Below are positions 8,869 through 20,275 of a stretch of DNA of 64,000 nucleotides, piece after piece (the first letter of the stretch is position 1; each line of letters begins with the position of its first letter). The stretch comes from Dictyostelium discoideum (lineage: Eukaryota). The translations under genes were made by a program, and so were the position numbers. A model generated the notes under the pieces. The model made no database searches, was not told the DNA's origin, and saw nothing but the letters and a program-made list of their open reading frames with translations. The stretch is taken from assembly GCA_000004695.1 (NCBI GenBank), contig CM000151.3, positions 7,968,001 to 8,032,000 on the forward strand, given 5' to 3'.

Positions 8869-16040
<7,172 letters not shown>

Positions 16041-16618
16041 TAAATTTATTGGAAAAAAACTAAATAAGAATTAAGGATGGAACATCTCTGTACAGAGATA
16101 GAAAAATGAATTGGTGGCACTTGATTGTGGAAATTAATATAGCTAAATTTCATCTCATTTTTCATCAACATCCAAATAAATAAAAATTAAAAATAATTAA
16201 AAAAAAAAAAAAAAAAAAAATAATAACTCCAAACAATATTATTATTCATTATTATTATTATTATTATCACACTTGTATTTAATCTCTGAAAAATAAATAT
16301 GAAAATAAAAAAGAATTAAAAAATTAAAAATAGATGGGCGAATTTCCAATACTTCGTTGGGGTATAACTCCCAAAAATAAAAAAAAATTTATTTAATTTT
16401 CAGATAATTATAAATAATTAATTTTTTGTTTTTTTTTTTTTGCTTTTTTTGTTTTTTTTTTTTTTTTTTTTTTTTTTTTGTAGATTGACAAATTAGGATA
16501 ATAATAAAAAAAGAAAAAAAAAAATTTTAAAAATAGGTATTTAAAGAATTAATTTTTTTTTTTTTTTTTTTTTCCAATTAACCAATTAAAAAAAGATATT
16601 TTGGATTGTTTCTCTTAT

Positions 16619-16730: not shown

Positions 16731-17785
16731 ATGAAAAATTTTTTTTATTTTGTCTTTTTAATACCAGCAATACTATTACTATTTTCATTTCACAAAATGG
16801 AAGGATCACAAAATTTTGAAGCTGAAAATGTTAGAGCTACATTAGTTTATCCTCAACATGCTGTTTTGGGTGAAGGAAGTATTTGGTCAGATACTGATCA
16901 AGTCCTATATTGGATTGATATCGAAGGAAAGAAATTATTCATGTAAGTGTTATTAAATTTCTGAAAAAAAAAAAAAAAAAAAAGAAAATTAAATAAATAA
17001 TAATAATAGTTTCTAACTTTTTTTTTTCAAAAAGTTATAACCCAAAAACTAATTGTAATCAAGAATTTGGATTAAGTGATTTACCAGGTACAGTTGTACA
17101 AAGAACTAATGGTGAATTATTAATTGCAATTAGAAATGGTATTACATCATTTAATCCACATACAAAGGAATTTAAAGTTATGGCACATCCAAATACAGTT
17201 GCCAATAATAGATATAATGATGGTAAATGTGATTCACAAGGTAGATTTTGGGTTAGTACAATGAGTTTGGAGCAAGACAATCCACCAAAAGCATCACTAT
17301 TTAAAATTGATAGAGATTTTCATTCAGAGAAGATCTTCGATGGTGTTAGAATTGGTAATGGGTTGGTATGGTCAATTGATCAAAAAAAGTTTTACTATAT
17401 TGATACACCAACTTTGAATATCGATGAAATGGATTACAACGCTGCCCAAGGCACTGTATCAAATCGTCGTCATTGTATATCTTTTGAAAACCGTAATTTC
17501 GGCTTCCCAGATGGTATGACCATTGATAGTGAAGGTAAACTCTGGATTGCTCATTGGGAGGGTGGTAGAGTTACAAGATGGTGTCCAATCACTAAAAAAC
17601 TTTTATTAACTGTAACTGTTCCAAATGTCTCAAGGGTCACTTCTTGTGCTTTTGGTGATTCTGATCTTCAATCTCTTTATATCACAACTGCAAGACGTGA
17701 TGGTGAACCTGATTCTGGTTCATTATTTAAATATAGATTTACAAATGGTATTAAAGGCAATGTTGCTTTTAAATTCCAAGGTTAA
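16731..17785 (+). CDS. SMP-30/gluconolactonase/LRE-like (regucalcin family) protein with an N-terminal signal peptide. Exon 1 is 16731..16942, the intron is 16943..17034 (GTAAGT...AG), and exon 2 is 17035..17785.
   Basis: Track ORFs 16731..16946 and 17180..17785. The hydrophobic N-terminus is MKNFFYFVFLIPAILLLFSF. The motifs 'GEGSIWSDTDQVLYWIDIEGKKLF' and 'DGKCDSQGRFWVSTMS', and the 'GFPDGMTIDSEGKLWIAHWEGGRVTRW' six-blade beta-propeller repeats, are typical of the SMP-30/SGL family. The exon join at phase 2 gives ...KKLFIYNPKTN. Confidence 0.85.
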
Positions 17786-17967
17786 AAATAAAAAAATAAA
17801 AAAAATAAAAAAATGAAAAAAATGGAAATATGTGTGTGTAAATATTTACTCGTGTGTTTAGTTTTTGTTTTTTTTTTTTATTTTTTTTTTTTTAATTTTT
17901 CATTTTTTTTTTTTTTATTTTTTTTTTATTTTTTTTTTTTTTATGATTTCTATCAAAATACAGAACA

Positions 17968-18251
17968 ATGAAACAATACCCAATAAAGATTTATCCAGAA
18001 AATACATTAACAATATTATTATTTAAAAATGTAACAAATACAAATGAAATTAAAGATGGTTTACAAAATGGGTTATGGGATTGGTCAGTTGCAAATTGTA
18101 AACCAATTTTTGATGATCAACAAATTTTAATTGCTGCAACTAAATCAATATCTGCATTTTCAGAATCAAAAAAACCAGAATCATTTAATGAAATAAAGAT
18201 ATAATTAATAGATTATCACCATCTGGAAATGTAAGAGTTTTTATTTTTTGG

Positions 18252-18306
<55 letters not shown>

Positions 18307-18733
18307 ATATTAATTCAAATAAATTAATGATTGATATGTTTATTTTTAAAAATATAAATATAAATAGTTTGCAGATTCTTTAACAAATTTTGGATTAAAT
18401 GGTGATGACAGTGAATTTTTTGTATTTTTAATGAACGCTACACAAGAAAAGATTGATCAAGTTAAAAATAATATTAAAGGTGAAGAGGTTGATATTAGTA
18501 ATGAATCAAAAAATATTTATTTTAATCCAGATTTCGCTAAAAAGGTAATACACTCTTTTTTTATTTCATTATATTTTTTTATTTTATTAATTATTTTTTT
18601 AATTATTATTCAGGTTTATAAAATTAGTGATATAGAATTACCAAATGAACTTTCAACATCAAATAATGAATTATATTTAGAAAAATTAAAAGGATTAATA
18701 ATAAATAATATGGCTGTTAAAGGTTTATTATAG
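17968..18733 (+). CDS. KEOPS/EKC complex subunit Cgi121 (TPRKB ortholog). Exons are approximately 17968..18230 (with an apparent frameshift near 18199-18204), 18368..18544 and 18614..18733.
   Basis: 'ENTLTILLFKNVTNTNEIKDGLQNGLWDWSVANCKPIFDDQQILIAATKSI' matches human TPRKB '[51 protein letters not shown]'. Downstream exons 'FADSLTNFGLNGDDSEFFVFLMNATQEKIDQV...' and 'VYKISDIELPNELSTSNNELYLEKL' match '[32 protein letters not shown]...' and 'KKIYKLSSQEESIGTLLDAI'. The donors are GTAAGA and GTAATA with AG acceptors, and the phases are consistent. The human sequence is quoted from memory. Confidence 0.8.
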
Positions 18734-18914
18734 TTTTGAAATAAAAAAAAAAAAAAAGTTTTGCACAGAGGCAAATTTTTTTTTTTTTTTTTTTTTTTTG
18801 GATATTAAAATATTATTTACTTATCATTCATTACTTTATTTATACAAAAGAAAATTATTTATAACGAATAAAAAATTAAATAATAATTTTATTGTTTCAA
18901 ATTATATTTTTTAT

Positions 18915-19640
18915 TATTTATTTTAACATGTTCATAGGATATTATTAAAGAGGAATATGTTGACATAAATTTTAAAAAATTTTTTTTTTTTTTTTCCTTT
19001 TCTTTTCGTTTGATTTTTGGAAAGTTTTAATTTTTTTTTTTTTTTTTTTGTTATGAAAATCTGATTTTTAATTTTTGATGATTTATGATTCACTTGAATT
19101 TTTTTATTTTATTATTATTTTATTTAAATTTAACATTCTCTTAGGATATTACTAAAGAGGAATATGTTGGTATAAATTTTAAAATTTTTTTTTTTTTTTT
19201 CCTTTTCTTTTCGTTTGATTTTTGGAAAGTTTTAATTTTTTTTTAATTTTTTTTTTTTTTAAGTAAATAAAATTAAAAAAAAAAAAATTTGAAAATTAAA
19301 ACAATAGTCAGAAAATAAAAATTTGACCCAGATATTTTCTTAAATTATTTTTTTTTGAACCATGACTTTTAAATTTTTGTCAAAAGCCATGATTCAAAAA
19401 AAAAAAAAGGCGACAAACCAACTCAAAACCACCTTAATCCTTAAATTTTTTTAAATAAAATTTTTTTTATTATTTTTGATAGGAAATCTGTATCAGATGG
19501 TATGATTGGTGTTTGGGAATAATGATGTTGAATGGTCCAGAGTTTAAAAGAGGAATGTGTTGAAATAGATTTTAAAAAATTTTTTTTTTTTTTTTTCTTT
19601 TAATTTCATTGGATTTTTAAATAGTTTTTTTAACTTTTTT
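18915..19640. repeat. Intergenic repeat cluster. Two ~115-120 bp direct copies (about 90% identical), roughly 18915-19050 and 19128-19240, each end in T15-18. A degenerate third copy lies at about 19545-19640 (agaggaatgtgttgaaatagattttaaaaaa(T)n).
   Basis: Direct comparison: 'ttcataggatattattaaagaggaatatgttgacataaattttaaaaaa(t)15ccttttcttttcgtttgatttttggaaagttttaa(t)n' versus 'tctcttaggatattactaaagaggaatatgttggtataaattttaaaa(t)15ccttttcttttcgtttgatttttggaaagttttaa(t)n'. Confidence 0.75.
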
Positions 19641-20275
19641 TTTAGGGTTGTGATTGATGGTTTCTTAATTTTTTATTTATTTTTTTTAAATTTTAATATT
19701 CAATGTTTATTTTGAACAGTTTATGATTCAATTGAATTTTAAATTTTTTTTTTTTTTTTAATTATTTTTTTTTTTTTTTTTTTTTTTTTTGAACCTTAAC
19801 TTTTAAATTTTTGTCAGGGACGTGGTTCAAAAAAAAAAAAAAAAAAAATTACATATTTAATTTTAAATTGGGTATCTTCTCGCATTTTTCCAACCAGAAA
19901 ACCTGTTGTAATTTTAAGGATCACAAAAAAAGTAAGATTCTTTTTAAAAATTTTAATCAATTCACCAAAATCTTAAGTGAAAAAAAAGAAAAATAAATTT
20001 ATTTTAATTGAAATTTAAATGGGTCATTTAATTATAATAAAAATCAATTCCAAAATAAAATTTAAAATTAATTAAATTTATTTAATTTGAAAATTTTAAT
20101 TTCAATATAAAAATAAATTTTTTTTTTCAATTTATTTAAAAAAAAAAACAAACAATTAAATCATTTAAATTAGTAAATCAATAAACAAATAAATGTAGGT
20201 GTTAAATTATATTTTTTTTTTTTAAAAAAAAGTTTTATTCTAATATTTTTTTTATTTTTTAATAAACATTAAAAG

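Follow-up and report, generated by a model that had tools for sequence, protein, structure and literature searches.

A split reading frame at the cgi121 locus

Why does the gene for the KEOPS subunit Cgi121/TPRKB appear, in the reference sequence of Dictyostelium discoideum, to be broken within its first exon? The locus lies in a stretch of 64,000 nucleotides (contig CM000151.3 of assembly GCA_000004695.1, positions 7,968,001 to 8,032,000), the whole of which is here called the window. From the ATG at 17968 the window translates for 78 codons, ends ...KKPESFNEIKI and stops at TAA 18202-18204, just as an initial annotation of this DNA had read it. The -1/+2 frame is closed on its 5' side by TAA 18186-88 and TGA 18189-91, is open from 18192, and ends at a GTAAGA donor at 18231. 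That this shifted frame remains open as far as the donor had also been claimed, and translation agrees: it reads NKDIINRLSPSGN. On the 3' side of ...AAATAG (18367) the protein resumes as FADSLTNFGL...PDFAKK and, past a second short intron, as VYKISDIEL...AVKGLL followed by a stop. Exon 1 is thus divided between two frames, and the break falls within 18189-18232, where it had been placed. The features discussed below are as follows.

17822..17853, forward strand: upstream mini-exon, found in the AX4 model only, encoding the 12-residue MEICVCKYLLV- and joined by a GT-AG intron to 17964
17968..18230, forward strand: cgi121 exon 1, codons 1-88 of the intact gene, from the open reading frame and translations; harbours the frame-breaking lesion
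18190..18190, forward strand: the lesion, G replacing AT (codons ATA-AAT, that is Ile76-Asn77), a net 1-nt deletion, from DNA alignment and a repair test
18202..18204, forward strand: premature TAA, which terminates both the 78-aa open reading frame and the 90-aa AX4 model DDB_G0277509
18231..18367, forward strand: intron 1, GTAAGA...AAATAG, 137 nt, 7% G+C, with a long poly(A) run; supported by a splice test that yields the 186-aa protein P0007
18368..18544, forward strand: cgi121 exon 2, FADSLTNFGL...PDFAKK
18545..18613, forward strand: intron 2, GTAATA...ATTCAG, 69 nt, 10% G+C
18614..18733, forward strand: cgi121 exon 3, VYKISDIEL...AVKGLL and the stop codon

Gene identity and protein family

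Judged by its sequence, the gene is Cgi121/TPRKB, a KEOPS subunit, in the allele of the D. discoideum AX4 reference. The true gene most likely comprises three exons (17968-18230, 18368-18544 and 18614-18733) with a product of 186 aa. The protein stitched across the two frames matches the Pfam CGI-121 profile (PF08617) over positions 1-159 of 159 (E=2e-23, 83.6 bits against a cut-off of 25), which upholds the identity first proposed for the gene, whereas the 78-aa fragment alone scores 26 bits and covers positions 1-51 only. The repaired 186-aa product is homologous to human TPRKB (3ENP/6WQX; E about 2e-17), to yeast Cgi121 (4WW5; E=1e-11) and to the Arabidopsis protein 8K20 (E=6e-8). With a full-length profile match and homology to structurally characterised KEOPS subunits, it belongs to PF08617. 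In length and domain layout it resembles Cgi121/TPRKB, the accessory subunit of the EKC/KEOPS t6A complex (PF08617; PDB 3ENP, 6WQX, 4WW5). By that comparison the repaired gene is ordinary, whereas the window as written keeps only the first 75 residues in the frame of the start codon.

The local DNA is typical of Dictyostelium: its A+T content is very high, poly(A)/poly(T) runs lie between genes, and the introns are short and A+T-rich. The upstream neighbour on the same strand (about 16785-17785; last exon ORF 17180-17785) encodes a 298-aa protein like SMP-30/gluconolactonase/LRE (Pfam SGL), and the position of this gene is conserved in all four discoideum-clade loci examined.

A single lesion private to the window

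A homologue search of a protein collection returned two clusters only, all of whose members come from NCBI genome annotations and none from transcriptomes or read assemblies; one of the clusters is D. purpureum. The second cluster holds 186-aa proteins from three D. discoideum assemblies, D. cf. discoideum, two D. citrinum, D. dimigraforme and D. firmibasis, together with the 90-aa 'hypothetical protein DDB_G0277509' of D. discoideum AX4, which ends ...SFNEIKI. The full-length proteins of these eight genomes read ...KKPESFNINKD(I/L/M)INRLSPSGN... in one frame, and the D. purpureum equivalent, NYNINKDIINRLSPSGN, is likewise one continuous frame. Comparison at the DNA level covered the loci of four discoideum-clade assemblies, the remaining species being compared as proteins. 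Examining independent assemblies and the D. purpureum orthologue across the site had been suggested at the outset, and in every one of them the frame is continuous. When nine genomes are compared, the lesion occurs in the window sequence alone, and besides the four assemblies aligned as DNA, four further genomes from other species have proteins that are intact at this point.

Alignment of the genomic loci locates the lesion precisely. The window reads TTTAATG-AAATAAAG where four other D. discoideum-clade assemblies read TTTAATATAAATAAAG, and G in place of AT at 18190 is the only difference in exon 1 that separates the window from all four. When the two-frame product is aligned with the intact proteins, only Ile76 is missing between the frames. 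At this site the G allele reads TTTAATGAAATAAAG or ...CATTTAATGAAATAAAGAT..., and the AT allele reads ...CATTTAATATAAATAAAGAT.... Replacing G18190 with AT and removing the introns at 18231-18367 and 18545-18613 gives exactly the 186-aa P0007. The site is not part of a repeat, and the change combines a substitution with an adjacent deletion. On its 3' side the rest of the gene is undamaged, the splice sites of both introns and all codons matching the intact allele.

This placement differs from the one first proposed, a 2-bp insertion of 'ta' in the 'atataat' run at 18202-03. The alignment instead puts the change of AT to G, a net loss of 1 nt, 12 nt upstream of that dinucleotide. Nor does the gap-free alignment claimed with human TEIIFNLSPNNN stand, as the Dictyostelium string used for it has 13 residues and the human string 12. 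HMMER sets Dictyostelium KDIINRLSP opposite human TEIIFNLSP, and all of those residues lie in the second frame. The peptide of the second frame starts earlier than had been assumed, and the residues NKD are part of the real protein.

The closest assembly

GCA_054883475.1 (contig JBTAPE010000033.1) is 99.79% identical to window positions 7953-28744, a comparison of 20.8 kb whose last 6.5 kb contain zero differences. The differences are SNPs at 12922, 19547 and 19611 and the site at 18190; all others are in the lengths of homopolymers or microsatellites. Within exon 1 the two sequences differ only by G versus AT at 18190, and substituting AT in the window yields that assembly's protein exactly. 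The 99.79% match, with only three SNPs besides 18190, indicates that GCA_054883475.1 comes from the same laboratory lineage, whereas the other assemblies named 'D. discoideum' show 86-96% identity in aligned blocks. The BioProject that apparently contains these assemblies has AX2-214 as its only laboratory strain, sequenced by Nanopore and Illumina (PMC12745789). Holland et al. 2025 also report de novo assemblies of the wild D. discoideum CR116C and OT3A and of two cryptic-species isolates, and further of citrinum-clade isolates, D. dimigraformum and D. intermedium (PMC12745789). From the near-identity and this published strain list I infer that GCA_054883475.1 is AX2-214. Ax2 and AX4 carry an identical axeB deletion, which points to a common axenic ancestor (Bloomfield et al. 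2015, PMC4374526).

Two wild isolates labelled D. discoideum (GCA_054859355 and GCA_054859385) differ from AX4 by about 1.5% in exon 1 of cgi121, and between genes they align to AX4 at only 86-96%. The divergence quoted for typical North American strains, 0.3%, is far below this (10.1101/2025.10.22.684067).

The AX4 gene model

The window encodes the 90-aa AX4 model (P0010, DDB_G0277509) exactly, by way of the mini-exon 17822-17853 spliced to 17964, and since the model is reproduced exactly the window carries the AX4 reference allele. The annotations of other assemblies start at MKQYP, MIQYQ or MRQYT and none uses the mini-exon; the flank just 5' of the ATG (the MKQYP start) is not conserved between strains. 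From this sequence comparison the 5' mini-exon of DDB_G0277509 would probably be a prediction artefact.

Neither the matches of the homologue search nor the cluster members include an AX4 protein covering exons 2-3. A full-text literature search found no paper on DDB_G0277509, and the published transcriptome-based re-annotation of Dictyostelids makes no mention of the cgi121 gene in its supplements. Look-ups of the exact products, the 78-aa open reading frame of the window and the AX4 model of 90 aa, matched no contig, and neither allele turned up when JGI metagenome contigs were scanned (with N{1,2} in the pattern).

Can splicing or recoding join the frames?

If the sequence were correct, an unrecognised GT-AG intron within exon 1 might join the two frames and give a shorter protein. 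The initial annotation held that no such intron could reconcile them. Taken literally this is wrong, as enumeration of splice pairs gives three (18059-18198, 18072-18211 and 18098-18198), each of which keeps translation open between the ATG and the donor at 18231, but in practice the statement survives. Each pair deletes 34-47 conserved residues, including the CKPIFDDQQILIAATKS core (QILIAA), which is conserved as far as human TPRKB and forms part of the coding sequence of every orthologue. Furthermore, the candidate introns have an exon-like G+C content of 25-28%, compared with 7-10% in the true introns, and no strain's annotation uses these splice pairs. I therefore consider a cryptic intron extremely improbable. 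AT-AC pairs that keep the frame open were also considered and were rejected, as they shrink the exon to a few residues.

The second way to rescue the sequence as written is for the ribosome to make full-length Cgi121, either through a -1 slip of tRNA-Lys on A-AAG (18195-18198) or through a +2 hop over the 'ta' at the stop. The overlap of the frames, 18192-18201 (A-ATA-AAG-ATA), does include A-AAG, and the stop codon lies two codons 3' of it. Slipping by -1 there, the ribosome would make a 186-aa product, ...SFNEIKDIINR..., two residues off the wild type, with the junction peptide ESFNEIKDIINR. However, the overlap has no X-XXY-YYZ heptamer, only the single-codon A-AAG, and over the 100 nt that follow, the spliced mRNA is no more stably folded than shuffled sequence (MFE -13.1 kcal/mol, mean of the shuffles -13.7, z = 0.22; 115 of 200 shuffles fold as well). 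The two-frame layout occurs in none of nine orthologous proteins and at none of four aligned DNA loci, although the flanking nucleotides are otherwise identical. The frame break is conserved in no other strain or species, and nothing here has undergone selection for recoding. The likeness to programmed -1 frameshifting, including A-AAG slippage of the bacterial dnaX type, is one of layout only, namely overlapping frames and A-AAG; compared with such sites cgi121 is without the heptamer, the stimulatory structure and conservation of the frame break. Recoding as the source of full-length Cgi121 thus has next to no chance of being correct, and the slip product at A-AAG would be relevant only if the G allele is real.

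Reference error or mutation?

Of the three explanations first offered for the break, a sequencing or assembly error fits best and a strain-specific indel is possible, while programmed frameshifting is unsupported, the arrangement being private to the window. The published mutation rates weigh heavily between the first two. Mutation-accumulation sequencing in D. discoideum puts substitutions at 2.5-2.9e-11 and indels at 4.9e-11 per site per generation (PMC3466296, PMC7466956). At these rates about 4e-6 real changes are expected in the 561-nt coding sequence over about 1e5 generations, and about 1.5e-4 in the 20.8 kb compared, against the four observed. The measured rates are far too low for spontaneous mutation to be a likely source of the lesion; by the same rates, a reference error is about 1e4-fold likelier than a real hit in this coding sequence. 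On the other side of the balance, sequencing of AX4-derived lines gave 1,917 candidate substitutions relative to the AX4 reference, 1,916 of which were common to the lines, and Saxer et al. ascribe such common discrepancies to reference errors or founder differences (PMC3466296). These discrepancies, about 1e-4 per base, are similar in order of magnitude to the 4 point differences found here in 20.8 kb.

The reference is also the odd one out, as the sister laboratory strain and every outgroup agree on the non-reference state at 18190. A variant private to the reference, absent both from the closest independent assembly and from the outgroups, has the distribution by which a reference error is recognised. 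The neighbouring SNPs are not clean evidence of a poor patch in the reference, because two of the three lie in a repeat and could be polishing errors of the other assembly. Sanger-era frameshift artefacts in reference genomes typically show what is seen here: a single-base discrepancy private to the reference, with the sister strain and relatives intact. They also show a truncated automatic model, here with an apparently invented 5' exon, and the density of discrepancies found on AX4 re-sequencing matches as well.

Could the change of AT to G nevertheless be real, and have become fixed in the AX3/AX4 lineage after its split from AX2? AX4 would then make only a 78-aa N-terminal fragment of Cgi121 and the gene would be a very young pseudogene. 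Only the AX4 reference allele carries the lesion, the sister laboratory strain being intact, and the lack of further decay is what would be expected of a lesion only decades old. That there is one lesion only, the remaining gene being identical to the intact allele, is compatible with an error and with a very recent mutation alike. AX3, the parent of AX4, is said to have been isolated after nitrosoguanidine mutagenesis in the work of Loomis from 1971, and such reported mutagenesis raises the prior for real mutations specific to this lineage. Nitrosoguanidine typically causes G:C to A:T transitions. The change at 18190, a transversion-like substitution with an adjacent deletion, is neither that type of transition nor a typical slippage indel.

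Loss of the gene need not be costly. The initial annotation called the complex subunit essential, which overstates the case: according to a review, yeast cgi121 mutants grow nearly normally and have no t6A defect (PMC10275265), so that loss of cgi121 would be tolerable. Other real lesions are known in axenic strains, such as the axeB/NF1 deletion (PMC4374526), and a real change in cgi121 would likewise be a disruptive lesion of laboratory stocks, in its case private to one lineage. Re-sequencing has confirmed the axeB deletion, however, and both Ax2 and AX4 carry it, whereas the cgi121 lesion is absent from the AX2-like assembly and is read from the AX4 reference only. A genuine mutation of the AX3/AX4 lineage is therefore possible but unlikely. 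A reading slightly less likely still is that the change is real in AX4 cells, which would then lack full-length Cgi121, or produce it only by infrequent -1 slippage on A-AAG, whereas AX2 has the full-length protein.

Taking the rates and the comparative sequence evidence together, it is likely that AT to G at 18190 is a base-calling or consensus error from the Sanger-era assembly of chromosome 2, and its origin would then be technical rather than a change in AX4 cells. If the change is such an error, the real AX4 sequence at 18190 would most likely be AT where the reference reads G. The lost base would shift the frame into a TAA four codons on, and this shift would have led annotators to the truncated 90-aa DDB_G0277509, leaving the last two exons unannotated. 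No special decoding would be involved.

Neighbouring sequence

Downstream of cgi121 lie three intergenic repeat copies (18891-19054, 19098-19259 and 19547-19654), about 110-150 nt each and 80-90% identical, every one of which contains ...AAAGAGGAATATGTTG... followed by a T-run. A search of the whole window with Rfam, the repeat copies included, gave no match. The third copy contains the SNPs at 19547 and 19611; at the latter, its paralogues carry the AX2-like base. The stretch around these two SNPs cannot be aligned to more distant strains, and only the paralogous repeat copies match it.

Relative to the near-identical long-read assembly, long poly(A)/poly(T) runs at 16452, 16620, 18252, 20911, 22171 and elsewhere in the window have 3-12 additional nt; intron 1 of cgi121, for example, has 12 extra A. 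Such differences in run length could be due to homopolymer compression in Nanopore data, to slippage in Sanger data or to real variation. Neighbouring coding regions differ by one 3-nt TAT unit (10968) and by a 12-nt TAA/AAT register shift (13803-13850), both in frame. Amino-acid repeat tracts are known to be unstable in D. discoideum, and these trinucleotide differences fit that pattern.

Implications

Most likely the frame break belongs to a familiar class of reference artefact and involves no novel biology. Its practical value is the correction of a gene model: changing G18190 to AT alone restores a normal 186-aa orthologue of Cgi121/TPRKB. As matters stand, comparative and functional-genomics tables based on AX4 make this KEOPS subunit look missing or truncated. 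If, on the other hand, the lesion is real, AX4 would be a natural cgi121 null compared with AX2, through a mutation of a kind familiar from laboratory strains. The two most used laboratory strains would then differ, unnoticed, in a KEOPS subunit, with possible effects on t6A, translation fidelity and telomeres.
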